64,000 nt of DNA from Minisyncoccota bacterium (lineage in GTDB: Bacteria; Patescibacteriota; Minisyncoccia; Phycocordibacterales; UBA9973): the NCBI GenBank assembly GCA_031291825.1, contig JARLIG010000009.1, positions 983 to 64,982 of the forward strand, given 5' to 3'. A program made the translations under genes and the position numbers. This document shows, in pieces, positions 5,861 through 63,941 of the stretch; position 1 is the first letter of the stretch, and each line of letters begins with the position of its first letter. The notes under the pieces were generated by a model. It saw nothing but the letters and a program-made list of their open reading frames with translations. It was not told where the DNA came from and did no database searches.

Positions 5861-5897
5861 AAACCCCGCACTCCGACCTAGGTCGGAGTGCGGGGTA
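5861..5897 (-). terminator. Strong GC-rich hairpin (15-17 bp perfect stem ccccgcactccgacc/ggtcggagtgcgggg) between the DUF378 gene and the GT2 gene; likely an intrinsic terminator or attenuator
   Basis: Perfect inverted repeat in the sequence. On the minus strand it is followed by tttgcattt. It lies between a stop at 5918 and a start at 5823. Confidence 0.45.
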
Positions 5898-8094: not shown

Positions 8095-8190
8095 TTTTAT
8101 TCTCCTCTTGAGGAGTACCCTTTAGGGGGAGGTGGATGAATTTCCACCCCGGCGCAAAAGCGCCACCCCTCAAGAGGGGAATTTTAATCG
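8095..8190. repeat. Array of GC-rich REP-like hairpins: an inverted copy of the 7170-7212 unit (8098-8138) plus a direct copy (8143-8190), immediately 3' of the rpoD stop
   Basis: cctcttgaggagtaccctttagggggaggtgga is the near-reverse-complement of 7170-7210. atttccaccccggcgcaaaagcgccacccctcaagaggggaatttt is a direct copy. There are 5-6 consecutive small hairpins. Confidence 0.6.
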
Positions 8191-28439: not shown

Positions 28440-29270
28440 TTATAGCACTTTTTCTATTTCTTTTGATAAAAAAATCAACCAATCATTTAAAAGCTTAATG
28501 ATAATTCTGGAATCATCTGTTGGGTTTATCGCCATTTCTAGTGTCTTATACATTTCGTTTTTTTTCTCAGGATAATATTTTGAAAAACTTTCATAGCAAG
28601 TATATAAATCCCTAGTATATTTCTGTTCACGCTCCATTACCAATTCAAATCCAGTTCTTATAATACGTTTCATTATAAATGAACATTTATCTTTATACTC
28701 TTTTATATCTTGGTGTTGTTCATTTTTAAATGAATGAATATTTTTCTCTATATCATTTTTAATATCTTTATAGATAAAAGCACACTCTTTTCCTGGTTTT
28801 AATTTTGGAATATTATCGAATATATCTTTTCCATAAATACATACCGCTTGAGTTTTGAGAATTATATGTGTACCTTTTTCTTTATTAACTGCACGTTCTG
28901 GTGTAACAACAAAAATTTCAACCCTACGAACAAACGGATATTCAGTAATAATTTTTTTATTAAATTCGTTTCTCCATTCTGTGTTTATTTGTTCTTTTGG
29001 AAGATTAACAATTGCTATAGTGTCTAAGTCTGATATTTCGTCAATAGCCAAACCTTCTGCCACTGAACCTCTTATGTAAACAGAGTTAAGTATATCCCCG
29101 AAATATTTTATGTAAACATTTTTAGTTTCTTCTATGACTGGTTTCCATTTTTTTTGAAATCTATCTTCAGAAACTTTTTTTACAATAAAGCCATCTTTGT
29201 CTACCTCAAGATATCCACCGATTTTTTGTATTTTCTTTTCCATTATTACTCTTGATTTTAATCCAACCAA
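28440..29270 (-). CDS. Nucleotidyltransferase of the ANT(3'')/ANT(9) (AadA-like) family: pol-beta-type NTase domain + helical C-terminal domain
   Basis: GS-x9-SDLD motif (IRGSVAEGLAIDEISDLDTIAIV) and VEIFVV align with the AadA GSAVDGGLKPHSDIDLLV/VEVTIVV pattern. Confidence 0.55.
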   Translation of the reverse strand: MVGLKSRVIMEKKIQKIGGYLEVDKDGFIVKKVSEDRFQKKWKPVIEETKNVYIKYFGDILNSVYIRGSVAEGLAIDEISDLDTIAIVNLPKEQINTEWRNEFNKKIITEYPFVRRVEIFVVTPERAVNKEKGTHIILKTQAVCIYGKDIFDNIPKLKPGKECAFIYKDIKNDIEKNIHSFKNEQHQDIKEYKDKCSFIMKRIIRTGFELVMEREQKYTRDLYTCYESFSKYYPEKKNEMYKTLEMAINPTDDSRIIIKLLNDWLIFLSKEIEKVL

Positions 29271-29953
29271 TTTTTTACTTTTAAGGCGCCCATGGCGGCT
29301 GATTGTTCAGCTTCCTGTTTTGATTTGCCTTTGCCTTCGGCAATCAAGTCTCCCCCAAAGAAAATACCCACGGTAAAATGCTTGTCATGGTCTGGGCCTG
29401 ACTGAGTCAAAACTTTATAAGCCGGTGTGACAGACACAAATTCCTGTGCTTTTTCTTGCACCAGAGACTTCGCATCACGCCAAAGTTTTTTATTCACAAT
29501 TTCTTCGGTTTTTGGCAAAAGAGTTTTGGTGATGAATTTATTGGTGACTTCATAACCTTGGTCTATATAGATAGCTCCAACTAGCGCCTCATAAGTATTG
29601 GCTAAAATATACATTCGCGCCTTGCCGTAATCTTTCGCTTCACCTTTTGACAGAAGCAAATAATCATTCATTCCTACCTCACTCGCTATTTCAGAGATAA
29701 TGATGGCATTCACTAGAGCTGAACGCAGAGCCGTCAATTCCCCCTCTGTATAATTCGGATATTTTTTATAAAGAAAATCAGTGACGATAAGCTCAAGCAC
29801 AGCGTCGCCTAAAAATTCTAAACGTTCGTTGTGCGAGTGTGATGTTCCTCCATTCTCATTGATATAAGAACGGTGCGTAAAAGATTGTTTTAGTAAAGCT
29901 TTATTTTTAAAAACTACTTTTATTTTTTTTTCAAAATCGGAAAATTGTATCAT
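29258..29953 (-). CDS. rnc: Ribonuclease III
   Basis: ERLEFLGDAVLELIVTDFLY signature plus a C-terminal dsRBD (GKGKSKQEAEQSAA). Confidence 0.92.
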   Translation of the reverse strand: MIQFSDFEKKIKVVFKNKALLKQSFTHRSYINENGGTSHSHNERLEFLGDAVLELIVTDFLYKKYPNYTEGELTALRSALVNAIIISEIASEVGMNDYLLLSKGEAKDYGKARMYILANTYEALVGAIYIDQGYEVTNKFITKTLLPKTEEIVNKKLWRDAKSLVQEKAQEFVSVTPAYKVLTQSGPDHDKHFTVGIFFGGDLIAEGKGKSKQEAEQSAAMGALKVKNWLD

Positions 29954-36056: not shown

Positions 36057-37865
36057 TTATCTCACCTGCCAACCATTATTCTCCTTGATTTTATTAGTTA
36101 TTTTAGTCATAATATCGTTCACTTCTTGGTCAGTCAAAGTCCTTTCGTAAGACTGAAAAACTAATCTAAAAGCGTAAGAAATTTTCCCATCTTTTTTAAA
36201 TTCATCAAAAAGTTCTGGTCCTCGCACAACCACCTCTCCCATATTTTCTTTTATTATTTTTTCTACTTTGGAACTTTTTACGTCCTCTCCCACCCAGACT
36301 GCCATATCACGTGCGATAAAAGGAAACAGGGACCACATTTTAAATATCGGAGCAGAATTCTGCTGGCGGAAGGTTCCAGCCGAAGGCTGGAGTAATGCCG
36401 AAGAATTCTGCTCCGATATTTCTTTACAGAATTCATTGAGTGTCATTTCTTTTACTTCTTTTTTGTTTCCGAAGGCAATATGCATTTCTTCCCCGCTCTT
36501 TTTAAACACCGTTCCAATTTCAAAAACTTTCGCTTGTTCTACTCCCAAAAGCGGCGCATTGGCTTGATTTAACTTTACGCTTTCTTTTAATCCGTCCGAT
36601 AAATTTGTTCGCAAAAAGTTTTTGTCGGAAGCCGAAGCCAAGACAGACACTTCTCCTTTGTTACTGAAACTCGTATTCATCACCTCAGAATATCCATCAT
36701 TTAACAATTTGTGTCTGGCCCAAAGAATTTTTGAATATGTTTCATTTACTTTTGGTTTAAAATTTATTTTAGGAATATTCCCTTTTACTTTGTCGTAGCC
36801 TAAAATTCTTCCTACTTCTTCCGCCATATCTTCTTCAATCACTAAATCTAGTCGCATTGGTGGCACTGTAATTTCAAAACTTCCCCTATCTTCGCTGTAT
36901 TCAAAATTATATTTCTTTAAAATATTTTTGATTTCATCAATTGAAATGCCCACGCCTAAAATTTTAGAAATTTTATCAACGGAAAAAGAAAGTTTTTTAA
37001 CTTCCTGCTTCTTTGGGTAAACATCGACAACATCTTCAAAGGAGGCCAGAGGACACATTTCTAAGATAAGAGCTGAAAATTCAAGCATGGCATAAGAACC
37101 GAGCTCTGGAGACAAATCATTTTCAAAACGCTTTTTGGCATCAGTGACGATGTTTAAAGCTTGAGCGGTTTTGCGAACGGAAGTCGGGTCAAAATTTGCT
37201 ACCTCTAAAATAATATTTTTTGTGTCATTATTTACTTCCGCAATTTTTCCACCTTTTATCCCAGCCACGGCAAGAACATTTTTAGCGTCGGCAATAACCA
37301 AATGAGAAGTTTCTAATTTACAATCTTTGTTGTCTAATGTTGTCATCTTTTCACTATCTTTTGCCATGCGAGCCACCAACTTCTCACTCACTTTATCTAA
37401 ATCAAAAACATGTGTCGGCTGACCACAATCAAACATCACAATGTTTGCCGCATCCACCATATTATTAATGCTTCTCTGCCCTACTGATTCCAAATGCTTT
37501 ACTACCCACTCTGGAGAAGGACCAACTTTTACATTGCGAATGATTCGCCCCATGTATCGACGACATTTATCACTTTCTATTTCTATCTTTAGATTAGTCA
37601 ATTTTGATTCTGGAATTTTATATTTTGGAGTGGGGTCAACAAATTTTATATTTAAAAGTGAAGCGAGTTCTCGAGCTACTCCTTGATGTGAAAGCAAATC
37701 ATGTGCGCGGTTTGGTAAAACTTTAATATCAAAAATAATATCTCCATCAGATTTTTTTTCCAGACTTTCTACCTCGCAAAGATGGTAATTAAAAATATCA
37801 ACCAATTTTTCAGCTTCGGGAGCTTCTGGGATATACCATTTGAGCCAATTGTAGGAAATATTCAT
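36057..37865 (-). CDS. pheT: Phenylalanyl-tRNA synthetase beta subunit (reduced, 602 aa) carrying an in-frame palindromic-element insertion
   Basis: B3/B4 and B5 domains, FPFIARDMAVWV motif; its position after pheS. Confidence 0.85.
   Translation of the reverse strand: MNISYNWLKWYIPEAPEAEKLVDIFNYHLCEVESLEKKSDGDIIFDIKVLPNRAHDLLSHQGVARELASLLNIKFVDPTPKYKIPESKLTNLKIEIESDKCRRYMGRIIRNVKVGPSPEWVVKHLESVGQRSINNMVDAANIVMFDCGQPTHVFDLDKVSEKLVARMAKDSEKMTTLDNKDCKLETSHLVIADAKNVLAVAGIKGGKIAEVNNDTKNIILEVANFDPTSVRKTAQALNIVTDAKKRFENDLSPELGSYAMLEFSALILEMCPLASFEDVVDVYPKKQEVKKLSFSVDKISKILGVGISIDEIKNILKKYNFEYSEDRGSFEITVPPMRLDLVIEEDMAEEVGRILGYDKVKGNIPKINFKPKVNETYSKILWARHKLLNDGYSEVMNTSFSNKGEVSVLASASDKNFLRTNLSDGLKESVKLNQANAPLLGVEQAKVFEIGTVFKKSGEEMHIAFGNKKEVKEMTLNEFCKEISEQNSSALLQPSAGTFRQQNSAPIFKMWSLFPFIARDMAVWVGEDVKSSKVEKIIKENMGEVVVRGPELFDEFKKDGKISYAFRLVFQSYERTLTDQEVNDIMTKITNKIKENNGWQVR
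36342..36421. mobile_element. Palindromic GC-rich element, copy 1 (core A ggaaggttccagccgaaggctggagtaa between inverted arms aaatatcggagcagaattc / gaattctgctccgatattt), in frame within pheT
   Basis: Near-perfect 20-bp inverted arms and a core shared with 38375-38446 and 44486-44573. It encodes LLQPSAGTF in PheT. Confidence 0.7.
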
Positions 37866-37869
37866 AAAA

Positions 37870-38661
37870 TTAAAACTGATTGAGTCTCAAATCTCCCTGA
37901 TAAAAGAAACGTACATCGGAAATACCCCATTTAATCATCGCAATACGGTCGAGCCCATGTCCAAAAGCAAACCCTTGCACCTTCTTCGGGTCCAAGCCAA
38001 TATTGCGCAAAACATTCGGATGCAGCATTCCAGAGCCACCCATCTCTAGCCATTTACCTTTGAACTTCGCAAAAACTTCCAGCGAGGGTTCAGTGAATGG
38101 GAAAAAGCTTGGCCTAAATTCAATGACAACTTCTTCGCCCAACATTTTTTTATAAAATTGAGTCAGCACGCCTTTCATATCCGCCACCGAAATATTCTCC
38201 CCTACCATCGCGCCATCTATCTGGTAAAATTGCATTTCGTGCGTCGCGTCGGTCGCTTCGTTTCTGAAAACTTTTCCAATGGAAATAAAAGCGGCAGGGA
38301 TTCTGCCCTCTTTCCCTGCTTGTTCAATCGCCCGCGCAGTGACGGAAGTCGTGTGCGTACGAAGCACAAGAGAAGCAGGAGAAGAATTTTTTTCGTGGAA
38401 GGTTCCAGCCGAAGGCTGGAGTAAGCGAGAAAAATTCTTCTCCTGCGAATCTTTAATAAAAAAAGTGTCCTGCATATCACGGGCTGGATGATCTTTCGGA
38501 ACATTTAAAACATCAAAGTTATACCATTCACTTTCCAACTCTGGTCCAGTCGCAATTTCAAAGCCCATATCCGAAAAAACCTGAAGAGCCTCTTGCGCCA
38601 ACAACGAAAGCGGATGGATTGTTCCAGAGTCTAATTTTTTTTCATTTTCTTCGTTGCTCAT
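37870..38661 (-). CDS. pheS: Phenylalanyl-tRNA synthetase alpha subunit (reduced, 263 aa) carrying an in-frame palindromic-element insertion
   Basis: HPARDMQDTFFI ... LVLRTHTTSV ... FRPSFFPFTEPS class-II motifs. Confidence 0.88.
   Translation of the reverse strand: MSNEENEKKLDSGTIHPLSLLAQEALQVFSDMGFEIATGPELESEWYNFDVLNVPKDHPARDMQDTFFIKDSQEKNFSRLLQPSAGTFHEKNSSPASLVLRTHTTSVTARAIEQAGKEGRIPAAFISIGKVFRNEATDATHEMQFYQIDGAMVGENISVADMKGVLTQFYKKMLGEEVVIEFRPSFFPFTEPSLEVFAKFKGKWLEMGGSGMLHPNVLRNIGLDPKKVQGFAFGHGLDRIAMIKWGISDVRFFYQGDLRLNQF
38375..38446. mobile_element. Palindromic GC-rich element, copy 2 (the same core A; arms gcaggagaagaatttttttc / gagaaaaattcttctcctgc), in frame within pheS (72 bp = 24 codons)
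   Basis: The core is identical to copy 1. It sits between the conserved PheS motifs DTFFI and LRTHT, where homologues have only ~5 residues. Confidence 0.75.
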
Positions 38662-38922
38662 TTAAAGAAGGTGATGCTCTTTTTTTCTTAATTCATATTT
38701 ATCATCACCAGTATGGATAATAGTAAAATCAGTACTGCCATGATAGCCTTCTGGACGATTTGTTTCAAAATGCGTCACCCCCGTTAAGTGATTATGGTGC
38801 GCAGCCTCTAAAAAAGCCTTAGCATCATCAGGATGGTCGGTTAAAAATTTAACAGCATGCTCCGCAGAATCACTACCATCTGGAATAGTTACTTGTTTAC
38901 CTTGTATATTTATTGTTGCCAT
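38662..38922 (-). CDS. Small His-rich hypothetical protein
   Basis: 86-aa ORF immediately upstream of pheS; no recognised motif. Confidence 0.35.
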   Translation of the reverse strand: MATINIQGKQVTIPDGSDSAEHAVKFLTDHPDDAKAFLEAAHHNHLTGVTHFETNRPEGYHGSTDFTIIHTGDDKYELRKKEHHLL

Positions 38923-38953
38923 ATATTATTAAGTTAAACTAATAATATAACAA

Positions 38954-39880
38954 TTATATCAAATTTGCCTCTACCTTACTAATCTTCCGACCGTGACGTG
39001 ACAAGACACATCCGCCCATGCAAAAAACGTTTCCATCACCTTTAGTCACACAATTTTCGCAAGCAATAAAATGTCGATGACAAACTGGATTAGCGCAATT
39101 CACGTAATTTTCGGATTGTTCGCCACAATGGTCACATTTACCAATTATTTCATGTTTTGAATCATCCGTATAAAATCCCATCGTCACTCGCCCATCAAAA
39201 ACATATAACTTTCCCTGAAAATCTTCATTGGGGTACTTTTCCATATAACTCACGATTCCCCCATCTAGCTGATACACGTCAGTAAAACCTCCCTTAATTA
39301 AAAATCCAGAAGCTTTTTCGCAACGTACACCACCAGTACAAACCGTTAAGACAATTTTATTTTTTAAATGATAAATTTGTTCCACAACTTTGGGTAAATC
39401 TCTGAAATTTTCAATTGGTGGCAAAATAGAATTTTTAAAATGTCCTACCTTATGTTCGTAAACATTTCTCATATCCACAATGTAAAATTCTTTTCCATTT
39501 TTAATCCATTCATGTAATTCTGCCGGCGCTAAATGCACACCGGTTATTTGATTCGGGTCAATATCGCAAGTGCCTAAATGAAGCGATACAATTTCTTTGC
39601 GAACTTTGATAGACAATCTCGGAAAAGCATTTCCATTACTTGCACTTAGTTTAAAATGAATATTTAAAAACCTCTTATCTTTTTCGAGTTCCTTGATATA
39701 TTCCGCAATATTTTCTTTAGTTCCTTCAAAAGTTATGTTGATACCCTCCTGAGCAATAATACCTCTGCCTTTGAGTTCTAGCCGCGCGCAGATGTCTTCC
39801 TGCCAAGCCTTTACCGCCTCGGGGTCATCAATATGCACATATTTATAAAATAAGATGATTTGGTGCCGTTCTTCATTCAT
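38954..39880 (-). CDS. trhO: Rhodanese-domain tRNA uridine(34) hydroxylase TrhO (UPF0176/YceA family) with a C-terminal Cys-rich zinc ribbon
   Basis: ILFYKYVHIDDPE N-terminus, rhodanese active-site loop TVCTGGVRCEKAS, C-terminal CDHCGE..C..C..C cluster. Confidence 0.75.
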   Translation of the reverse strand: MNEERHQIILFYKYVHIDDPEAVKAWQEDICARLELKGRGIIAQEGINITFEGTKENIAEYIKELEKDKRFLNIHFKLSASNGNAFPRLSIKVRKEIVSLHLGTCDIDPNQITGVHLAPAELHEWIKNGKEFYIVDMRNVYEHKVGHFKNSILPPIENFRDLPKVVEQIYHLKNKIVLTVCTGGVRCEKASGFLIKGGFTDVYQLDGGIVSYMEKYPNEDFQGKLYVFDGRVTMGFYTDDSKHEIIGKCDHCGEQSENYVNCANPVCHRHFIACENCVTKGDGNVFCMGGCVLSRHGRKISKVEANLI

Positions 39881-39909
39881 AGAGATATCTTAACGACAAA
39901 AAGAAAAAA

Positions 39910-42900
39910 TTACAATTGTTTATATATCTCGGCCATTTGGCAATACTCGCACTCTGTATTTTTACCATAGGAATTGTAGTTACAAGGGCGAGCCATCCAT
40001 TCCCCTGTTTTTACCAGATGGTCGTAATCTTTAATATCTTTAATTAGAAGTTCTATCTTCTTCTCATCAATAAAAGTACTGTAAAAATTATCTTTGTCAT
40101 TTTTTGCTTCCAAAAATTCCAAAACTGATTCCTGCACGTTTACTTTATTTTTTCTACTTTCCTTTAAAAGAAAAGAGTACATCGCCAACTGGCGCATATA
40201 ATCGCTCATTCTTCCCTCTTCATTTATCTTTTCTATATCAATTTTCTTGCGAGCATTGCCAGTCTTAAAATCAACCACTCGCACATTTTCTACACCAAGC
40301 TCTTCCACCAAGTCGAGTTTTCCATAAATATTTAAATGTGGGAATTCTTTCGCATGAATGGAGATGCTTTTTTCATTTTCTCTTTTTTCGCTGATTTCTG
40401 GTAATCTACTTTTGACCCATTTAGCAACAATCTTTAAAGCTTCTTTGTTATTCCCCACAAAAGCAATCATTTCTTTTTCCGTCGGAATCTTCTTTAATTT
40501 TAAGATTTTATCAATCGCTCCATGAACAGTATTTCCAAATTCCAAACTTTCACTTTTTGGTTCCGGTAATTTAAGCAGATTCCTAAAATACCATTTACGT
40601 GGACATTCAAAGAAATTATTGAGTAAAGATACAGAAACATTTGTATCGAGATATTCCCGCGCAACCATTTTGGTTAATTTTTCTAAAACATTTTCGGTAT
40701 TTTCTACTTTGGTTGAAATAACATAATTTTTTGGGTCACTCGCAATAATTTTACTCTCAGTTTCCGAAAAAGAAAATTTATTGAAAACTTTAGAAATACC
40801 AGAAACATCTGATACTATTTTAGCCAGTTCCTGCCCTTGTCCGCTGTAAGAAAATCTTGAATAAGATATATTGCAAAATCTTTTAGCTCGAGTAATTGCC
40901 ACATAAAGCTCTCGCTTGGCCGTCATTTCATCTTTGGCCTCTATCTTTGAAGCGACAGAAAGAGGTAAAGTAAAGTTGTTACGCTTTCCTTTCATTAATC
41001 CATTCTCATCCATGTGTGCTATCCAAACAAAATCAAATTCCAAACCTTTAGAACCATGCAAGGTCATCACCTTTACGCCTTCATCACTTTGGAAAACAGC
41101 AAGCGGAACATCTTCCCCATATTCACGAAGTCTTTCAATAAAAGAAATATACTCAGGCAAAGAACTTTTGGATTTTTTATTTTCATTAATATTTTTCTCT
41201 GAAAAAGAAAGTGCTAAGTGAAGCAAAGTCCGAATAACTTCAATTCGACGCATTAGTTCTTCATGATTTTTCGCGGTTTTGATTAAAACCTCATCTCCAG
41301 CCAACTGAATCAAGCCATAAACGTCAGAAGAACTTTGTCCAACAACCAAGTTTTTTAATTTTTCTGCCCAAGCTTTGATTGCTCCATCTTTATTAAACAA
41401 ATCATCTTGCAGAGAAAGCATTTCTTCTAAAGAAATATCTTTGCCATGTTTTTTATATAAATATTCATGTGCTGAAAAAATAGGTATGCCAACAATGGGA
41501 TCCAGTAATGTTTCCGACAAAGAAACTGCATCATTGATGTTCGCACAAATTTTCAAAACCCTAAACAATGTTTCAAATTCCAATGTTTCAAAAAGTGTCA
41601 TATTTTGCATTGAAGCAACCTTGATGCCCATATCTTTTAAAACTCTGATAGCCGAAATCACTTGCCTATTTTTAGGAACCAGCACGGCGCAACTATTAAT
41701 ATCAACTTTATCATTTTTAATTGTTCTGCTTTGCTCACCACCTTCCGTTTTTTCTTTGATTTGTAAACCGCAAGCGATAATTTCGTCACGTGGATAATCG
41801 CATTCAATCAAATTTAAATTATTATTTTCCTTCAAGGTGGCAATTAATTTTTCGGTGGAAAAAGAACTGGAAAGTAAACTGTCGGCGGTATTTAAAATAT
41901 TTTCAGTTGAACGATAATTGTTGGTTAGAAATATTACCTTAGCCTTGCCGAACATTGTTTTAAATTCTTCAAAATGCGACATTTTAGCGCCACCGAAGGC
42001 ATAAATCAGTTGACGGTCGTCACCAACCGCAAAAATACTCGGATGATCTTCTTTTTGCCAAATGGCTTTGAGTAAATCATTTTGCGCCCCGCTTGAATCC
42101 TGGTGTTCATCAATCAAAACATATAAATATTTTTCCTGGATTTCTGCTCGAGCCTCTTCACCTTTTTCCATTATTTCAATCGCATACTTTATGACATCAT
42201 CATAGTCCATCAAGTACTTTTCTCGTTTATGCTTTTCATACAGTTCATAGAAGGTGACAATTTCTTTAGTTCGCTCCAAGCTTTCAATTCTCGTCACAAA
42301 TTCTTTTTTCATTTTTCCCTTACTTTCGCCACGAGTAGAAATGCTATCTTCGTCCCGCTCGATGTGAGATATTTCATCTTCAATTTCTTTTAGAAATTCT
42401 TTCGGCGTCAGTCTTTCCCGCTTTAAAAGAGAAATTAGGGATTTTAATTCTTTAAAATGTCTACCGATGTCTCCTCTCGGACGCAAATACCTCCAATCGT
42501 TTTCACGCAAAATTTCATCGCAGATTGAAACACTCTCCGCATCTTCCAAAATTCTTGGCGCTAAATCAAAATCAAGCAGAGAATAAAACTCTTCCACTAT
42601 CTGCCCTGCAAATTTATGAAAGGTAAGAATATGCACACGGGAAGCTGTGTTGCCAATATATCTGGTGAGCCTATCCCGCATCGCCCGTACGGCGGAATTT
42701 GTAAAAGTCAGACACAAAACTCCATCTGCTCCGATATCTGTTTTTTTTAAAATATTGCCAATACGCAAGGCTAAAATCTGCGTTTTTCCTGTACCTGGAC
42801 CAGCCACAACCATTACCGGACCATCAATGGTTTCTACCGCCTCCTTCTGCGCAGGGTTCAGCTTCTTGTATTCTTCTTCGAATTTTTCGGCAGTCACACT

Positions 42901-42915
42901 AATATTATATACCAA
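39910..42915 (-). CDS. UvrD/PcrA-family superfamily-1 DNA helicase fused to a C-terminal PD-(D/E)XK (RecB/Cas4-like) nuclease domain with a 4-Cys cluster
   Basis: Walker A AGPGTGKTQIL; helicase motifs through TLHGSKGLEFD and YVAITRAK; C-terminal C..RKWYF ... CNYNSYGKNTECEYC. Confidence 0.75.
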   Translation of the reverse strand: MVYNISVTAEKFEEEYKKLNPAQKEAVETIDGPVMVVAGPGTGKTQILALRIGNILKKTDIGADGVLCLTFTNSAVRAMRDRLTRYIGNTASRVHILTFHKFAGQIVEEFYSLLDFDLAPRILEDAESVSICDEILRENDWRYLRPRGDIGRHFKELKSLISLLKRERLTPKEFLKEIEDEISHIERDEDSISTRGESKGKMKKEFVTRIESLERTKEIVTFYELYEKHKREKYLMDYDDVIKYAIEIMEKGEEARAEIQEKYLYVLIDEHQDSSGAQNDLLKAIWQKEDHPSIFAVGDDRQLIYAFGGAKMSHFEEFKTMFGKAKVIFLTNNYRSTENILNTADSLLSSSFSTEKLIATLKENNNLNLIECDYPRDEIIACGLQIKEKTEGGEQSRTIKNDKVDINSCAVLVPKNRQVISAIRVLKDMGIKVASMQNMTLFETLEFETLFRVLKICANINDAVSLSETLLDPIVGIPIFSAHEYLYKKHGKDISLEEMLSLQDDLFNKDGAIKAWAEKLKNLVVGQSSSDVYGLIQLAGDEVLIKTAKNHEELMRRIEVIRTLLHLALSFSEKNINENKKSKSSLPEYISFIERLREYGEDVPLAVFQSDEGVKVMTLHGSKGLEFDFVWIAHMDENGLMKGKRNNFTLPLSVASKIEAKDEMTAKRELYVAITRAKRFCNISYSRFSYSGQGQELAKIVSDVSGISKVFNKFSFSETESKIIASDPKNYVISTKVENTENVLEKLTKMVAREYLDTNVSVSLLNNFFECPRKWYFRNLLKLPEPKSESLEFGNTVHGAIDKILKLKKIPTEKEMIAFVGNNKEALKIVAKWVKSRLPEISEKRENEKSISIHAKEFPHLNIYGKLDLVEELGVENVRVVDFKTGNARKKIDIEKINEEGRMSDYMRQLAMYSFLLKESRKNKVNVQESVLEFLEAKNDKDNFYSTFIDEKKIELLIKDIKDYDHLVKTGEWMARPCNYNSYGKNTECEYCQMAEIYKQL

Positions 42916-43049
42916 TTAACAAATTTAAAAACTCGTTGCAGGCGTACTTTTTAGAAAGCCTTGGGAGTCGCGACGGCGACGGACAGAGAAAATTTTCAGC
43001 AGAAAATTTTTGTGCTTTATAAAAAGTATGCCAAAAAAGAGTTTTTTAG

Positions 43050-43454
43050 CTATTCAGTTGTCACTCCATCAAATTCTTCGTCATTTTCTTTCTTTTCTGC
43101 TTCTGCCTTGGTGGCTCGCACAATGCCATCTTTGTGATGGGCTGGAGAATAAAGAGTGTAAAGTTTCAAGTCTTCTGTTCCGGAGGTATTGATAACATTG
43201 TGCTGTGCTCCAGCTGGAACAATAATAGCCGAACCATCTTTAACATCATAATAGTTTCCATCGATAACACATTTACCCATACCTTTCTCAAAACGAAAAA
43301 ATTGGTCATTCTCAGCATGAGTTTCCATTCCAATTTCTTCCATTGGTTTCAGGCTCATTAAAACCAATTGACTATGTTTGCTGGTGTATACAACCTTGCG
43401 AAAATTTGTATTTTCAATGGTGTCTTTTTCAATGTTTGCATTAAATCCTTTCAT
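43050..43454 (-). CDS. Cupin-domain protein
   Basis: Double-stranded beta-helix motifs (GMETHAENDQFFRFEKG ... AIIVPAGAQHNVINTS). Confidence 0.6.
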   Translation of the reverse strand: MKGFNANIEKDTIENTNFRKVVYTSKHSQLVLMSLKPMEEIGMETHAENDQFFRFEKGMGKCVIDGNYYDVKDGSAIIVPAGAQHNVINTSGTEDLKLYTLYSPAHHKDGIVRATKAEAEKKENDEEFDGVTTE

Positions 43455-43570
43455 AAATTTATTTCCCTTTATTATTGATAAATCTCCGACTTAGTATAAT
43501 TTTACCATAAACACTTTCTTTTTGCGTAAAATAATGTAAATTAAGGGTATTGGATTTTATAAGCATTTTG

Positions 43571-43657
43571 GAGGGTTCGCATAGCGGTCTAGTGCGCACG
43601 CTTGGAAAGCGTGTGTGGAGCAATCCACCAGGAGTTCGAATCTCCTACCCTCCGCCA
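43571..43657 (+). tRNA. tRNA-Ser (anticodon GGA), class II with a long variable arm and a genomically encoded CCA
   Basis: Manual fold: acceptor GGAGGGT/ACCCTCC, 3-bp D-stem, anticodon stem CACGC/GCGTG with loop TTGGAAA, 16-nt variable arm, T-arm AGGAG-TTCGAAT-CTCCT, discriminator G, then CCA. Confidence 0.85.
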
Positions 43658-43658
43658 A

Positions 43659-45914
43659 TTATTTAAGCATCTTCAAGAATTCTTCTTCGCTTAAAATTTT
43701 CACTCCTAATTTTTGCGCAGTCGTAAGTTTGGAACCAGCTTCTTCTCCCACTACAACATAAGAAGTATTTTTTGAAACCGAGCCGGCGACCTTGCCACCC
43801 TGTGCCAAGATGCGTTCTTTGGCTATCTCGCGAGACATCATAGAAAGGGTGCCAGTCAAAACAAAATTCATTCCCGTAAACTTTCCAGCTTTTATTTTTT
43901 CGGCTTTTTCCACCACTACACCATTTTCTTGTAATTTTTTTATAAAATTAAGATTGCCTTTATCTTTGAAAAAATCACTGACACTTTTAGAAACTGCCGG
44001 ACCGATATTTTCAATATTATCTATCTCCGATAAGTCTGAAACCGCAGCAGAGGTTAATTTTTCTAATGTTCCAAAATGACTAGCTAAATCTCGTGCCGTC
44101 TCTTCCCCTACATGCAAAATACCAAGCGCCCATAGAAATTTGGAAAATGGAATCTTCTTTTTGTTTTTTATTTCATTGACTATATTCTCTGCCGATTTTT
44201 CTCCAAAACGTTCCATCGTGGCAATATCTTCTTTTTCCAAGGTGAAAATATCCGCTGCGTCGGTAATCAAACCCTCATCTTTAAAACGTCGCAAAATTTT
44301 TGGACCAAGTTCGTATATTTCAAAAACCGCCACAAAATGTTCTAGATATCTTTCGTTTTTCGCAGGACATTTTGGATTACTGCAATAATAGGCCACTGAG
44401 AGTTCAGCCGATGGTAAATTCCGCTGCTTTCCTCCACCCTGCGGGCGGAACCTTCCGCTAGCGGAATTCTCCATCGGCTTTCCTAGAAGTGGCGAAATTG
44501 AAGATTTCTGAACAGGGAAGGTTCCATCCGAAGGATGGAGTAAACTGGAAGAAATATTTAATTTCGCCACTTCTGCACCACACACAGGACAAGAGCTCAC
44601 CATTTTGAATTTCTTTTCTTTGCCCATTCGCATTTTTGTCAGCACTTCCACAACTTTTGGAATTACATCTCCTGCCTTTTCTATCACCACAGTATCGCCG
44701 ATACGTAAATCCAATCTTTCTATTTGGTCCATATTGTGCAAGGTCGCTTTAGAGACCGTCGAACCAGCCACCACCGTCGGCTCAAAAATCGCCAGTGGCG
44801 TCAAAACACCCGTTCTTCCGACATTAACTTTTATGTCTCTCACAATGGTCGTGGCTCGCTCTGCAGGATATTTAAACGCAGCCATATATCGTGGAGCTTT
44901 ACCGACGACGCCTAAAGTTTCCTGCAATTTCAAATCATCAACTGAGATAACTATTCCGTCCGTACCATAGGGAAAATTTGGACGAATTTTTTCAAATTTT
45001 TTAATGAAGGTTATGACTTCGCTCAGATTCTTACACAAGGCATCATTTGAGTCCACTTGAAAACCTAAACTTTTTAAATACTTATGTTTATCAGAATGTC
45101 TTTGCGGAACAAGAAAAGAATTCTGAACTGAGAAAGTTTCGTTCACAGGATGTAGGAAATTTTTCCCGCTTACTCCACCCTGCGGGCGGAACCTTCCACG
45201 TGAAAAATTTCCTACATTCTGCTCCTCCATTTCCGCAATATCATAAGCAAAAAAATCTAGGTTGCGTTCTTTTGATAAGTTGGGGTCGAGCTGTCGCAAA
45301 CTTCCAGCCGCCGCATTTCGAGTATTAGCAAAAAGCGGTTTGTCCTCACGCTCCTGCTTTTTATTTAAAGCAACCAAGGTTTTCTTAGACATTATTGCTT
45401 CTCCTCTGACTTCTATGTAGGAAGGAAATGGTTTAGGTAAAACCAGCGGTATGGAATGAATGGTTTTTAAATTTTCCGTAATATCTTCTCCGATAAATCC
45501 ATCTCCTCTCGTCGCTCCACGCACAAATTTTCCATCTTCGTAAATTAAAGAAACAGCCAATCCGTCAAATTTTACTTCACAGAAATAACCAAATTTAGCA
45601 CTAGCTGGTAGAAGTTTTTTAATTCTAGTCTCCCAATCACTCAATTCCTCCTCACTAAAAACATCATTAAGGGAAAGCATTCTGGTCTTGTGTTCTACTT
45701 TCACAAACTTATCAAGCGGCTTGCCTGCGACTCTGTTTTCCTCCGCGTTAGCATCATTAAATTCTGGATAAATTTTTAAAAATTCTTTGAGTTCGCGAGT
45801 CAGAGAATCATAGACATCATCCGTCCCTATATCCTTCACATGATAGGAAAAACGCAGACGCGCTATTTCCTCCCGCAATTTTTTTATTCTCTTTTGAGCT
45901 TCAGATTTATTCAT
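43659..45914 (-). CDS. ligA: NAD-dependent DNA ligase LigA carrying three in-frame palindromic-element insertions (two inside the Zn-finger loop)
   Basis: KxDG adenylation motif (CEVKFDGLAVSLIYEDG), OB fold, CPVCGAEV...CSNPKCPA zinc finger, HhH repeats, C-terminal BRCT. Confidence 0.9.
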   Translation of the reverse strand: MNKSEAQKRIKKLREEIARLRFSYHVKDIGTDDVYDSLTRELKEFLKIYPEFNDANAEENRVAGKPLDKFVKVEHKTRMLSLNDVFSEEELSDWETRIKKLLPASAKFGYFCEVKFDGLAVSLIYEDGKFVRGATRGDGFIGEDITENLKTIHSIPLVLPKPFPSYIEVRGEAIMSKKTLVALNKKQEREDKPLFANTRNAAAGSLRQLDPNLSKERNLDFFAYDIAEMEEQNVGNFSRGRFRPQGGVSGKNFLHPVNETFSVQNSFLVPQRHSDKHKYLKSLGFQVDSNDALCKNLSEVITFIKKFEKIRPNFPYGTDGIVISVDDLKLQETLGVVGKAPRYMAAFKYPAERATTIVRDIKVNVGRTGVLTPLAIFEPTVVAGSTVSKATLHNMDQIERLDLRIGDTVVIEKAGDVIPKVVEVLTKMRMGKEKKFKMVSSCPVCGAEVAKLNISSSLLHPSDGTFPVQKSSISPLLGKPMENSASGRFRPQGGGKQRNLPSAELSVAYYCSNPKCPAKNERYLEHFVAVFEIYELGPKILRRFKDEGLITDAADIFTLEKEDIATMERFGEKSAENIVNEIKNKKKIPFSKFLWALGILHVGEETARDLASHFGTLEKLTSAAVSDLSEIDNIENIGPAVSKSVSDFFKDKGNLNFIKKLQENGVVVEKAEKIKAGKFTGMNFVLTGTLSMMSREIAKERILAQGGKVAGSVSKNTSYVVVGEEAGSKLTTAQKLGVKILSEEEFLKMLK
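44404..44481. mobile_element. Palindromic GC-rich element, copy 3 (core B ctccaccctgcgggcggaaccttcc, the reverse-orientation variant of core A; arms agccgatggtaaattccgc / gcggaattctccatcggct), in frame within ligA
   Basis: Inverted arms are seen directly. The core is the reverse complement of core A apart from ~5 substitutions. It encodes GRFRPQGG. Confidence 0.7.
44486..44573. mobile_element. Palindromic GC-rich element, copy 4 (core A variant ggaaggttccatccgaaggatggagtaa; arms gaagtggcgaaatt / aatttcgccacttc), in frame within ligA, adjacent to copy 3
   Basis: Encodes LLHPSDGTF. Together with copy 3 it adds ~55 aa between the CPVC and CSNPKC pairs of the LigA zinc finger. Confidence 0.7.
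45146..45221. mobile_element. Palindromic GC-rich element, copy 5 (core B; arms caggatgtaggaaatttttc / gaaaaatttcctacattctg), in frame within ligA
   Basis: Encodes a second GRFRPQGG peptide ~245 aa into LigA. Confidence 0.7.
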
Positions 45915-62710: not shown

Positions 62711-63914
62711 AATGTCCCTAGAACCAAAAAATAAACTAAACATCGCCATGATTTGCGACCCAATCGGCAGTAATAAATCCGGTGTCGTCGTTTCTACTTT
62801 GCGTTTTTCAAAATTACTCAAGGAACGTGGACACCATGTTATTTTTATTGCCGCGAGTTCGGAAGAACACAGAAAAAATGATTTCTTTGAAGGAATAAAG
62901 GTTTATCACTATCGCAGTCTACCTATTCCAAAATCTGATGGCTGGCGACTGGCTTTCCCGACTGTTAATGAACTAAAAAAAGTTTTCCAAGTAGAAAAGA
63001 TAGATGTAATACATATCATTCTGCCGATGTCCGGAGCCATCGTCGCCATTAAGGCCGCGCGAGCGCTTGGTATTAAAATTGTCGCGCATTCGCACTCACA
63101 ACCGGAAAATTTGTTTGCTGATATGCCAAAATTTATCCAGCCAACCTTAAATAATTTATGGAATAAATATTTAATGTGGGTTTACTCCAAAGCGGAGTCA
63201 ATAATTTACCCATCGGAAATGGCTAAAGAATTACTACATAAATTGAATAAAAAGGATCAACCTTATACCGTTATTAGTAATGGAATAAATTTAAAACATT
63301 TTCAAAAGATGGAAGTCGGCGATTTTTATGAGCGATTTAAAATACCAAATGATAAAATAAAATTATTATTTGTCGGACGATTGTTTCCAGAAAAATCGGT
63401 GGATACACTCATTCGGGCAATGCCTTTTGTCCTGAGAAAGAATGAAAATGTGCATTTGATGCTTGTGGGCGGTGGAATCTTGAGAAATAAATTAGAAAAA
63501 TTAGTGGAAACTCTTAAAATGGGTAAACATATTACATTTTTAGGATTGGTTAGCGAAGAAGATAAAATTTTGGCTTTCAATGCCTGTGATATATTCGTTC
63601 TTCCCTCTTTGGCAGAACTCGAAGGAATGGTGGTGCTCGAAGCGATGGCTTGCGGAAAGCCAATTATTATTTCCGATACGGAGATGAGCGCATCGAGATT
63701 TTTTGTAAACGGTAATGGATTTTTATTTAAAACCCTAAACCCGGAGAGTCTGGCCGAGCAAACATTGAAGTTGGTAAATGATGAAGATTTACGAAAAAAA
63801 ATGGGCGAAGTAAGTTTTCAAAATGTTCAAAATTATGATATTCATAAAAGTGTGGAAATGTTGGAAGACGTTTATTATCAAGCGTTAAAGGGTCCAGACG
63901 TTGGACATCTATAG
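62697..63914 (+). CDS. Family-4 glycosyltransferase (GT-B, retaining)
   Basis: C-terminal EGMVVLEAMACGKPIIISD (EX7E) motif and GT4 N-terminal domain. Confidence 0.8.
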   Translation: MIKTKMSLEPKNKLNIAMICDPIGSNKSGVVVSTLRFSKLLKERGHHVIFIAASSEEHRKNDFFEGIKVYHYRSLPIPKSDGWRLAFPTVNELKKVFQVEKIDVIHIILPMSGAIVAIKAARALGIKIVAHSHSQPENLFADMPKFIQPTLNNLWNKYLMWVYSKAESIIYPSEMAKELLHKLNKKDQPYTVISNGINLKHFQKMEVGDFYERFKIPNDKIKLLFVGRLFPEKSVDTLIRAMPFVLRKNENVHLMLVGGGILRNKLEKLVETLKMGKHITFLGLVSEEDKILAFNACDIFVLPSLAELEGMVVLEAMACGKPIIISDTEMSASRFFVNGNGFLFKTLNPESLAEQTLKLVNDEDLRKKMGEVSFQNVQNYDIHKSVEMLEDVYYQALKGPDVGHL

Positions 63915-63941
63915 AACAGGTGTACAACGTCTGGACCTCTA
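63897..63941. repeat. Hairpin element ccagacgttggacatct-atagaacagg-tgtacaacgtctgg overlapping the GT4 stop codon; copy 2 of the 50686-50722 element
   Basis: Seen directly; 14-bp stem; the sequence is shared with the pilC-distal copy. Confidence 0.55.

Follow-up and report, generated by a model that had tools for sequence, protein, structure and literature searches.

How does the same GC-rich palindrome come to lie five times inside the reading frames of three housekeeping genes? This question is raised by a 64,000-nucleotide stretch of the genome of a Minisyncoccota bacterium (here called the window), for which the original prediction proposed selfish mobile insertions resembling the Rickettsia palindromic elements (RPEs) in pheT, pheS and ligA. 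That observation is confirmed and its interpretation is supported and largely holds: recurrence of the core, lineage specificity of the segments and signs of splicing were the points on which the idea could have failed, and none refuted it. We think that the copies belong to a family of short, non-autonomous palindromic repeats of the RPE/MITE type that is endemic to a CPR clade (Nomurabacteria/Paceibacteria) and that selection has filtered for a harmless peptide, and we give this reading a probability of about 60%.

All five predicted copies are present (Table 1); a covariance-model search without filters of the remaining 55 kb of the window gives no additional one. Each consists of a core flanked by inverted arms of 20-28 nt that are 86-100% complementary, differ in sequence from copy to copy and carry GAATT or AAATT, with an AATT box on both arms. 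The two core variants that had been distinguished both exist; read from the opposite strand, the second proves to be the first with stem changes that compensate each other. Merged into one core, GGAAGGTTCCNNCCGNAGGNTGGAG, they match exactly 5 times in the window and 0 times in 100 shuffles. Every copy folds into a long hairpin (-35 to -50 kcal/mol, z = -5 to -9.6), with a stability that 0 of 200 shuffles reach. In both orientations the reading frames run through uninterrupted and encode the expected peptides LLQPSAGTF, LLHPSDGTF and GRFRPQGG, while translation itself is inferred. The predicted shadow-frame peptide KVPAEGWS is also present and is a by-product of the repeated DNA. The window PheS is identical in sequence to the database protein P0001 from a 'Candidatus Pacebacteria' MAG, and in its AF2 model the insert is a low-confidence loop and the only long stretch with pLDDT <50.

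Table 1. Palindromic copies in the window and the genes that carry them
Feature	Position	Strand	Core	Encoded peptide	Model bit score	Remarks
Copy 1, in pheT	36342..36421	+ (GGAAGG strand; antisense to gene)	36368-36392	..SEQNSSALLQPSAGTFRQQNSAPI..	89.9	Perfect 20-nt arms
Copy 2, in pheS	38375..38446	+ (GGAAGG strand; antisense to gene)	38397-38421	..QEKNFSRLLQPSAGTFHEKNSSPA..		72 nt = 24 codons; between PheS motifs DTFF and LRTHT
Copy 3, in ligA, zinc-finger loop site	44404..44481	- (GGAAGG strand; sense to gene)	44432-44456	..ENSASGRFRPQGGGKQRNLP..	73.2	
Copy 4, in ligA	44486..44573	+ (GGAAGG strand; antisense to gene)	44516-44540	..KLNISSSLLHPSDGTFPVQKSSIS..	89.1	Compensated stem variant CCATCC/GGATGG; directly adjoins copy 3, inverted
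Copy 5, in ligA, FFAYDI site	45146..45221	- (GGAAGG strand; sense to gene)	45173-45197	..NVGNFSRGRFRPQGGVSGKNFLHP..	67.7	
pheT, PheRS beta subunit	36057..37865	-				ORF open throughout copy 1; synteny and Pfam annotation of L084 orthologue
pheS, PheRS alpha subunit	37870..38661	-				ORF open throughout copy 2
ligA, NAD-dependent DNA ligase	43659..45914	-				ORF open throughout copies 3-5

The description of the element as modular was correct, and other cores are found on the same scaffold of box and arms. The unit has about 72 nt (24 codons), with copies of about 72-90 nt. From the outside inward, a variable outer arm of about 8 nt is followed by the conserved self-complementary box (A/G)GAATT(C/T)T, a G.A-containing internal loop, a covarying stem of 3 bp, an invariant asymmetric loop with GGAAGG opposite U/G-A-A-N, and an 8-bp apical stem whose C-G closing pair carries a GNA triloop (N free). 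Covariation of the pairs is very strong. Across the aligned copies 88% of the cells are paired, compared with 41-56% when the partners are slid, and 30 of 36 pairs have changed on both sides; the observed values were reached in 0 of 500 shuffles. Even the peptide residues covary as the stem predicts (H-G 47, Q-A 36, H-D 18), and no other combination of these residues occurs.

The core recurs well beyond the window: 82 loci in genomes and at least 120 in metagenomes carry it, nearly all of them on low-GC CPR contigs with the full hairpin, and no viral contig is among the matches. The loci were found by an exact 18-base pattern, and the model added 8 exact copies and 10 with mismatches. About 180 hairpin copies, 141 of them distinct, come from more than 100 Nomurabacteria/Paceibacterota contigs. 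Adjacent copies are inverted in every case. About 90% of the copies lie inside housekeeping genes and the remainder at gene ends; the hosts comprise 18 families with about 20-22 sites, among them LigA, PheS, PheT, LeuRS, MnmA, the CCA-adding enzyme, Dus, Tgt, UvrA, UvrC, HolB and PurH. Of the 84 copies in the discovery set, 77 fall within ORFs of 100 aa or more, with 64 antisense and 12 sense in a single phase; the replication set (74 antisense, 16 sense) has the identical phase. The seeming exceptions are shadow ORFs or copies that lie immediately before a start codon. In about 170 intragenic copies every ORF stays open in a single phase relative to the palindrome, which yields LLxPSxGTF or, in the opposite orientation, GRFxPxxG. 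The used phase has the lowest hydropathy and the fewest stops; the reason for this single phase is inferred.

The most conserved part of the hairpin is its unpaired loop bases. GGAAGG, A61-A62, G49 and A51 are invariant, even where they fall on third codon positions or in rare NCG codons. At pair 45-55, 140 of 141 copies have R.T, whatever the orientation and also where T55 is a third codon position; pair 41-59 is always T.G, and both pairs form only on the GGAAGG strand. A decaying selfish insert leaves conserved unpaired bases unexplained, and this counts against our preferred reading. Such bases, with the G-N-A triloop closed by C-G, would fit a functional structured module, a folded GGAAGG strand (ssDNA, or an RNA often antisense to the host mRNA) that is recognised by a clade-specific protein and maintained by selection at each locus. 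It might serve as a processing or regulatory hairpin, as a recombination or replication signal, or as the precursor of a small RNA, and coding in frame would be the mere price of residence in a compact genome. The hairpins do persist at orthologous sites: the pheT copies in three relatives (L003, L007, L009) have compensated arms, and the outer arms of the orthologous pheT copies are only 54-75% identical among themselves, about as diverged as the flanking DNA (58-80%), while each copy is still self-complementary. Intergenic copies, whose arms are A/T-rich, are placed exactly at the 3' ends of genes, in many cases where two genes converge. Functional stem-loop RNAs in frame in CPR genes have a precedent in the TIGR-Tas preprint, and the window encodes an RNase III. 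We nevertheless regard this explanation as unlikely. No partner protein has been identified and no Rfam family matches; the strand that appears to fold is antisense to the mRNA in about 5/6 of the intragenic copies, where host transcription would not normally make it; the wobble asymmetry of the arms vanishes in sense copies and can be accounted for by codon preference; and the conservation of the core is partly ascertainment, given the exact search pattern. A role tied to the locus also fits poorly with the strong variation of occupancy among close relatives, in which the PheS site is empty or holds unrelated cores. Still, the loop conservation and the long maintenance of pairing hint at more than passive junk and leave room for a real nucleic-acid function.

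That the segments are lineage-specific insertions, as had been proposed, is borne out by empty alleles. The pheS site is empty in about 70 of the 120 closest PheS orthologues, also where the proteins are 93-95% identical; most close orthologues have only IKDKKEHV between DTFF and LRTHT. Empty sites were found for pheS in L083 and for pheT in L084, as well as in LigA and MnmA, and pheS and pheT have each gained about 72 nt net. At four-fold sites even the nearest empty allele shows about 45% divergence. In LigA the copy 3 site is occupied in L008, L027, L030, L040, L049 and L077, and at the copy 5 site L046, L049 and L077 have antisense copies and L008 and L027 have no insert. Different inserts occupy the same positions: at one codon position of PheS we observe at least six types, several with the box residues KNF/KNS (other cores in L084 and L085), in orthologues 75-87% identical to the window PheS, and a second core occupies the UvrA site that the first one uses. 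Orientation flips occur at orthologous sites, with the arms shared between the window and L040 PheS.

Mobility is a different matter. The selfish and mobile character claimed originally is inferred from presence/absence and from the distribution over many sites, and it remains only inferred, since the analysis turned up neither a transposase nor a target-site duplication nor a recent identical copy. No HUH enzyme, RAYT or other mobilising gene was detected either among the window ORFs scanned or beside the intergenic copies, for which only genome fragments could be searched. Sites with empty alleles, pheS and pheT included, show no target-site duplication or common target motif. Recent transposition has left no direct trace either, as no outer arms are shared between copies at different sites (best 13/16 nt). 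The mobilising enzyme would presumably be supplied in trans. That neither a transposase nor recent identical copies were found could mean that the elements are immobile relics of an ancestral insertion burst, inherited vertically with differential loss. Gene conversion among copies would then have homogenised the cores and yielded the orientation flips and core swaps, and the perfection of the hairpins would come purely from quasi-palindrome template-switch correction. Most sites are indeed common to many genomes, arm divergence tracks that of the flanking genes, and the arms of all families share the purine-rich consensus GCAGAAGAAGAATT. We find such a history improbable: loss alone would hardly produce six or more unrelated insert types at a single PheS codon position, template switching leaves the conservation of the unpaired loops unaccounted for, and the two copies flanking efp in L039 have near-identical arms, which suggests a comparatively recent duplication.

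If the segment were removed, for instance excised as a mini-intron at the base of the hairpin or skipped by the ribosome (translational bypassing, known from T4 gene 60 and the yeast mitochondrial 'byp' elements), the host proteins would be unaltered, and very stable hairpins whose long helix joins the two junctions resemble many processing substrates. We give this very little credence, since an open frame in all of the roughly 170 intragenic copies would be needless, some intergenic copies (3 of 9) do carry stops in the used phase on both strands, and no ribozyme or intron family matches; nothing in the sequences points to splicing. The byp elements of fungal mitochondria are mobile GC-rich palindromes that invade coding regions of AT-rich compact genomes. 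They break the frame and are bypassed by the ribosome, whereas the CPR elements are always in frame and stop-free. That the copies are dispersed tigRNA units of a TIGR-Tas RNA-guided system is scarcely credible despite CPR hosts, stems that diverge except beside the interior and occasional frame-preserving placement in disordered protein regions, because tigRNAs have two variable spacers (about 9 nt) framed by box C/D, are arrayed within or beside the tas gene and serve as guides for a Nop-domain protein (bioRxiv 10.64898/2026.09.09.750476), whereas our copies, single or paired in housekeeping genes, have a conserved, base-paired interior whose variable positions covary, show none of these defining features, no consistent box C/D framing included, and are accompanied by no Nop-domain gene among the window ORFs scanned.

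Among known repeats, RPEs are the closest. They are dispersed hairpin-forming repeats of about 100-150 bp in a reduced genome, with many copies in frame in unrelated housekeeping genes and others outside ORFs, with several families and no associated transposase (Ogata et al. 2000, 2002, as summarised in PMC10969869 and PMC1166351). The CPR element shares all of this except the length, and its conserved peptide is likewise apparently compatible with the host fold. It differs in phylum, in its shorter unit (about 72-90 nt) and in an intragenic share of about 90%, compared with about 12% (85/728) in R. felis. Moreover, its core and AATT box are conserved while its outer arms are compensated and differ from copy to copy, it occurs in both orientations at one site, and several core types compete for one codon-level hot spot. 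The in-frame palindromes are RPE-like as predicted; we regard the resemblance as one of analogy and not homology. MITEs with in-frame copies (ERIC, BOX, Correia/NEMIS, QMITE1, Anabaena MITEs) are also short, non-autonomous and bounded by inverted repeats; they may be located in ORFs or at gene ends and can serve as terminator-like hairpins (PMC10969869). In classical MITEs the terminal inverted repeats are conserved, and target-site duplications and a cognate IS transposase go with them (PMC10969869), whereas here the termini vary and the interior is conserved, which speaks against our reading, and neither a duplication at the pheS and pheT sites examined nor a transposase was found. REP/BIME sequences, linked to RAYT (Y1 HUH) transposases, are small GC-rich palindromes that are believed to work in a folded single-stranded form; they abound at the 3' ends of genes, and their structure is better conserved than their sequence. 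REPs are extragenic, have 20-40 nt and carry a GTAG or CGTC tag (PMC3733652), in contrast to a mostly intragenic, in-frame element of 72 nt or more without these tags and without a RAYT in the sequence examined.

A non-autonomous, RPE/MITE-like repeat may have spread as follows, as far as sequence comparison allows us to say. The element would have entered many sites, in permissive loops and linkers of housekeeping proteins or at gene 3' ends. Inside genes, insertions would have survived only if their length was a multiple of three and the phase read the box as AAT-TYT. In that phase the purine-rich and pyrimidine-rich arms would encode polar Lys/Gln/Glu-Asn-Ser/Phe-Ser linkers, the core would encode LLxPSxGTF (or GRFxPxxG), and the host protein would gain a tolerated flexible loop. 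Complementarity of the arms might long be kept through selection acting on a folded single strand or through template switching that corrects the palindrome. Inversion of the central part between the arms could give both orientations at one site, and related families with other cores on the same scaffold occupy the same hot spots repeatedly. The element would then stand beside the "protein-coding palindromes", so far known mainly from Rickettsia, as an independent counterpart with an unusual degree of structure.

The five copies of the palindromic element lie exactly where the original prediction had placed them in pheT, pheS and ligA, and the open reading frames of all three host genes continue uninterrupted across them, which bears out in-frame insertion. 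The two core variants that it had assigned to a single architecture are both matched by one pattern, GGAAGGTTCCNNCCGNAGGNTGGAG, with five matches in the window and none in 100 shuffles; core B is the core of core A on the other strand, with the changes in the stem compensated. Nearly all of the longest short-range inverted repeats of the window are element copies (repeats I1 and I3-I7), and every copy is predicted to fold as one long hairpin that is more stable than its shuffles (z-scores -5 to -9.6). A search with a covariance model, filters off, found no sixth copy in the window. A solo half-element (AAGAATTCTGAAC...) adjoins the fifth copy, in ligA, and adds about nine codons (..ETFSVQNSFLV..); a second copy that has since decayed may have left it behind.

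Coordinates of element copies, host genes and neighboring features in the window and in related database contigs (L numbers)
Feature	Location	Strand	Remark
Element copy, pheT	36342-36421		
Element copy, pheS	38375-38446		
Element copies, ligA	44404-44481; 44486-44573; 45146-45221		
pheT host ORF	36057-37865	-	read straight through copy
pheS host ORF	37870-38661	-	read straight through copy
ligA host ORF	43659-45914	-	read straight through copies
Solo half-element	45106-45146		adjoins fifth copy
Adjacent pairs	window 44404-44573; L013, L040, L090, L096, L108, L120, L138, L162		
pheS alleles with differing inserts	L084:10001-10780; L085:112-897		
Second core type	L055:2171-2269; L055:4858-4954; L010:291-390		
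Diverged-core sense copies	L013:5473-5565; L025:5606-5677; L046:4224-4312; L056:643-744; L078:752-844		
Split pheT	L084:12150-12300		two ORFs
EcoRI-type methylase and neighbors	L084:1-2252		9 kb from pheS
Palindrome family CCAGACGTTGGAC(A/G)TC	63891-63937; 50688-50718		gene boundaries
Spacer-less palindrome	5863-5896		17+17 nt
GC-rich hairpin	8099-8182		directly 3' of rpoD
RNase III gene	29258-29953		
tRNA gene	43570-43654		just downstream of ligA

The anatomy of the element was derived from a gap-free alignment of 83 copies over 93 columns. Read from the outside inwards on the strand that carries GGAAGG, it consists of variable outer arms, a self-complementary conserved box RAATTY (typically AGAATTCT) in both arms, a small internal loop with a conserved G...A, a covarying 3-bp stem (GGC/GCC, CGG/CCG or GAC/GTC), an invariant asymmetric loop with GGAAGG opposite (U/G)AAN, an apical stem of 8 bp (TTCCNNNC/GNNNGGAG), and a G-N-A triloop with a C-G closing pair. 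In the pair counts, 88% of cells are paired, compared with 41-56% when the partners are slid; 30 of 36 pairs have changed on both sides, and none of 500 shuffles reached the observed pairing values. Pairing drops outside columns 12-13 and 84-85, and the net insert relative to empty alleles is about 72 nt in both pheS and pheT; the unit is therefore about 72 nt, or 24 codons. Conservation of the core is partly a matter of ascertainment, as copies were found by means of the core pattern. Of the additional copies that only the covariance model found, 8 have the exact core and 10 carry at least one mismatch. Copies in which the GGAAGG strand is the sense strand of the host gene are over-represented among those with diverged cores (5/10, against about 15% of exact-core copies).

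Several observations bear on where the constraint lies. At residues 2 and 5 the core peptide has just three combinations, H-G, Q-A and H-D, save for a few Q-V, Q-T and Q-P. These follow exactly from base pair 46-54, so that it is the stem that is constrained rather than the peptide. In orthologous pheT copies the outer arms are 54-75% identical and the flanking DNA 58-80%, yet each copy is still self-complementary; complementarity is thus actively maintained. Quasi-palindrome correction by template switching is an established mutational process. Either selection or this process, whose role here is inferred, could keep the arms complementary. As to which strand folds, the evidence points to the GGAAGG strand and now rests only on pair 45-55, which is R.T in 140 of 141 copies of both orientations, on pair 41-59, which is always T.G, and on the triloop, G-N-A loops with a free N being especially stable in DNA hairpins. 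An excess of G.T across the arms (138 vs 46) had to be downgraded as proof of the folding strand, because it occurs in antisense copies only and is gone in sense copies (14 vs 13); a codon preference for AAA over AAG and for Ser over Phe can explain it.

The relation to the reading frame is uniform. ORFs of at least 100 aa contain 77 of the 84 copies of the discovery set, with the GGAAGG strand antisense to the gene in 64 and sense in 12, and with one frame per orientation; the single outlier is a shadow ORF over pheS. The metagenome set repeats the pattern in the same frames (74 antisense and 16 sense among the matches listed), and of the four matches that seem to deviate, three are copies shortly before a true start codon and one is a shadow ORF. 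Since the box is symmetric, the two frames amount to one phase relative to the palindrome, with AATT always read AAT-T. All of the roughly 170 intragenic copies among the matches listed, spread over 18 host families, share this single phase. The core holds no stop codon in any antisense frame, and hence the phase is not forced by stops. The phase that is used yields K/Q/E-N-S/F-S linkers, the lowest hydropathy and the fewest stops. From inspection of the arm consensus we infer that the single phase is due to the product, as other phases would make runs of Phe and Leu from the pyrimidine-rich arm.

The 18 host families offer about 20-22 distinct sites. Pfam confirms FAD-linked oxidase, MnmA, the CCA-adding enzyme, Pol III delta', a SAM methyltransferase, Dus, UvrC, Tgt, a class-V aminotransferase and PurH; further hosts, recognized by motifs, we take to be PheS, PheT, LigA, LeuRS, UvrA and TypA/BipA. 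About 90% of the copies among the matches listed are intragenic. The intergenic copies, whose arms are A/T-rich and resemble terminators, sit at the 3' ends of genes, for the most part convergent ones. An inverted pair in one contig (L039) might be read as a composite transposon; this was rejected, because the pair merely flanks efp, between ssb and recA. Within the host proteins the inserts occupy the places of short variable loops of the orthologues, as judged without an experimental structure. In the AlphaFold2 model of the window PheS (pTM 0.72) the catalytic core is confident, and the sole long stretch with pLDDT below 50, residues 64-100 at 29-41, includes the insert. This prediction would fit a flexible excursion without proving one.

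That the segments are lineage-specific insertions is confirmed by the orthologues. Among the 120 closest PheS orthologues about 70 have an empty site, in which DTFWIKDKK is directly followed by EHVLRTHT, including some that are 93-95% identical to the window PheS outside the insert. The window PheS is identical to a protein of a 'Candidatus Pacebacteria' MAG, and an insert junction in it reads ...KNFSRLLQPSAGTFHEK.... The closest empty pheS allele shares 86% of its DNA and 55% of its four-fold sites with the window, so the difference is not extremely recent. Empty alleles were also found for pheT, LigA site 1 and MnmA site 2. The non-empty PheS orthologues (among P0002-P0120) carry at least six types of insert at the same position: the present core (core 1) in both orientations, FALGDKGQGTHD, ALPASGLRHGQNF, GCDTT, PPLLxEEGAGGGD, SLGSSLHS and others. 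The first three retain KNF/KNS/QNF box residues on both sides, and the GCDTT type is duplicated once. In the DNA of four relatives the same codon-level position of pheS is empty or filled by core 1 or either of two other cores, and in every filled allele this DNA forms a long hairpin that has an AATT box and arms rich in purines. The same scaffold of AATT box and variable arms surrounds a second core type, TGTGGGACCC-N5-GTAC-N5-GAAGGGAGGAAC. At the UvrA site one copy has this second type, and L033, L044 and L073 have core 1.

Orientation varies at the sites as well. Either orientation occurs at orthologous sites of PheS, both LigA sites, MnmA site 1, HolB, LeuRS and Tgt. The PheS copies of the window and of L040 have the distal arm GCAGGAG in common and opposite cores, a contrast that, judged from sequence, would fit a flip of the DNA enclosed by the inverted arms. 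Where two copies are adjacent, they are mutually inverted, in 9 of 9 distinct pairs representing about 3-4 independent sites, and no direct tandem was seen; each such pair forms a larger inverted repeat. Two schemes for the origin of the copies are not supported. If the core and one box were exchanged at a spacer-less AATT-centered palindrome, such palindromes should exist, and none was found in 1.27 Mb. If the outer arms were inverted duplications of host flank (X-core-X'), the net insert would not equal the hairpin length, as it does in pheS and pheT, whose flanks pair over just 4 bp of A/T-rich sequence, by chance. The motif ATAAAAAA is present at the empty sites of pheS and pheT and absent from those of LigA and MnmA; as a shared target motif it probably reflects chance in A-rich loop codons, and the matter is unresolved. 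In a close relative (L084) pheT is split into two ORFs by an A-run frameshift exactly at the empty site, in a domain linker; the gene may truly be split, or the assembly may be wrong here.

The expectation that the core recurs outside the window was borne out. A relaxed core pattern, run against genomes sampled at one per species, gave 82 loci, and a metagenome scan at least 120, with 97 full-hairpin matches among those listed. About 70 of the 82 belong to Ca. Nomurabacteria, Paceibacterota, Minisyncoccia or MAGs labelled 'Saccharibacteria' (unchecked database labels); the others are high-GC chance matches without hairpins, in a number close to that estimated for an 18-base pattern. IMG/VR viral contigs contain no core match, so a viral vector finds no support. 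Two protein-level searches with the underpowered 34-residue peptide motif added nothing: a word-indexed profile census of host proteins gave 21 candidates, none significant, and an exhaustive HMMER search gave 7 weak multi-stretch matches, apparently of low complexity.

Rickettsia palindromic elements (RPEs) are the closest comparison. A 2024 review describes them as palindromic repeats of about 150 bp with an unusually frequent in-frame insertion into unrelated genes (PMC10969869), and R. felis has 728 of them, 85 in ORFs (PMC10969869, PMC1166351). The likeness extends to a dispersed repeat with a stable hairpin, supported here by z-scores of -5 to -9.6 and by covariation in 30/36 pairs across 83 copies, and to frequent in-frame insertion into unrelated genes (here 18 host families) with the addition of a conserved peptide. 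In contrast to the RPEs, the present elements measure about 72-90 nt rather than about 100-150 bp, reside in Patescibacteria rather than Rickettsiales, and are modular, bidirectional at single sites and far more often intragenic; no alignment to an RPE consensus was made. The RPE-like interpretation thus holds in the sense of an analogue in an unrelated phylum, and not of membership. A full-text literature search found no description of such elements in CPR/Patescibacteria.

Other known systems fit less well. Unlike in MITEs, the termini are not conserved; the arms are inverted repeats, but their outer 8-12 nt vary by copy, and what is conserved lies further in, namely the AATT box and the core. 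Comparison with the empty alleles revealed no direct target-site duplication at the pheS and pheT junctions (2-4 sites examined), and no transposase or autonomous partner lies beside the intergenic copies or among the 20 window ORFs scanned, which are not whole genomes. REPs of the REP/BIME-RAYT systems are 20-40 nt long and extragenic (PMC3733652), whereas the present element has 72 or more nt and is mostly intragenic; a GTAG/CGTC tag is not conserved at either end, and no RAYT gene was seen in an incomplete search. According to a 2026 preprint, the stem-loop guide RNAs of TIGR-Tas in Patescibacteria have divergent stems and can lie in frame inside tas (bioRxiv 10.64898/2026.09.09.750476). 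The element shares stems that diverge save near the interior and a possible in-frame location, a superficial likeness. It differs in lacking variable spacers, box C/D framing and, in the sequence scanned, a neighboring tas gene, and in occurring as single copies or inverted pairs in ligA, pheS, pheT and other genes, not as arrays at tas. Its interior is conserved across about 180 copies among the matches listed, and those interior positions that vary covary as base pairs. No Nop-domain gene was matched among the window ORFs scanned. Rfam 15, including its ribozymes and introns, has no match to the element at the gathering score; a permissive scan returned generic miRNA-like hairpins far below threshold. 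Finally, an EcoRI-type methylase (PF13651) in L084 adjoins a GmrSD/HNH protein and an HTH protein. A link of restriction-modification to the GAATTC-like box was rejected, as far as could be judged, as coincidence: neither the window nor any other locus has the methylase, and the frequency of GAATTC is as expected (21 observed, 21-25 expected).

These genomes carry several GC-rich palindrome families. The family CCAGACGTTGGAC(A/G)TC occurs at gene boundaries of the window and in frame in MnmA site 2 of L026, and an unrelated in-frame repeat encodes SLGxSL(R/H)SxT(P/L)S in three host proteins (MnmA site 1 of L005, PurH of L017 and PheS P0064). Also outside the element family are a perfect spacer-less GC-rich palindrome at the 5' end of a glycosyltransferase ORF and a hairpin behind rpoD. 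The window further encodes RNase III, and the perfect 20-28 bp stems of the elements in mRNAs would be plausible substrates of this enzyme. A tRNA gene (53.5 bits) is the window's only Rfam match at the gathering threshold.

We favor the reading that the element is a selection-filtered, non-autonomous palindromic repeat family, at a probability of roughly 0.6; its mobility, the enzyme responsible and translation of the inserts are inferred. A separate function of the conserved, folded core is less likely but a serious possibility. About as likely is the bolder proposal that the hairpins are more than tolerated parasites and form a clade-wide system of exchangeable ssDNA/RNA modules recognized by proteins, with a conserved folded core and a variable stem, deliberately housed in frame in essential information-processing genes and at gene ends, whose cores change places and orientation at fixed 'docking' loops, for example that of PheS between DTF and LRTHT. 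If true, this would be a dispersed genetic element of a new kind; in concept it would stand between REP/RAYT systems, integron-like cassettes and the stem-loop guide RNAs recently found within CPR genes.

Protein-coding palindromes have hitherto been treated as a peculiarity of Rickettsia, and the CPR case is independent, widespread and much more regular. The element family also accounts for 'CPR-specific insertions' of one class, which are seen in conserved proteins (aminoacyl-tRNA synthetases, ligase, Uvr proteins and tRNA-modifying enzymes) and can mislead alignments, phylogenies and structure predictions. About 180 copies among the matches listed, in one phase and with amino-acid pairs dictated by the stem, form an unusually clean dataset for weighing nucleic-acid structure against coding constraints. 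The single-codon hot spot of PheS, empty or filled by one of at least six elements in close relatives, is a strain-typing marker and a natural experiment on insertion tolerance. Should the conserved loops reflect protein binding, a new element-protein system would be added to a poorly understood part of bacterial diversity. The case indicates that AT-rich reduced genomes can repeatedly evolve repeats that live inside essential genes.
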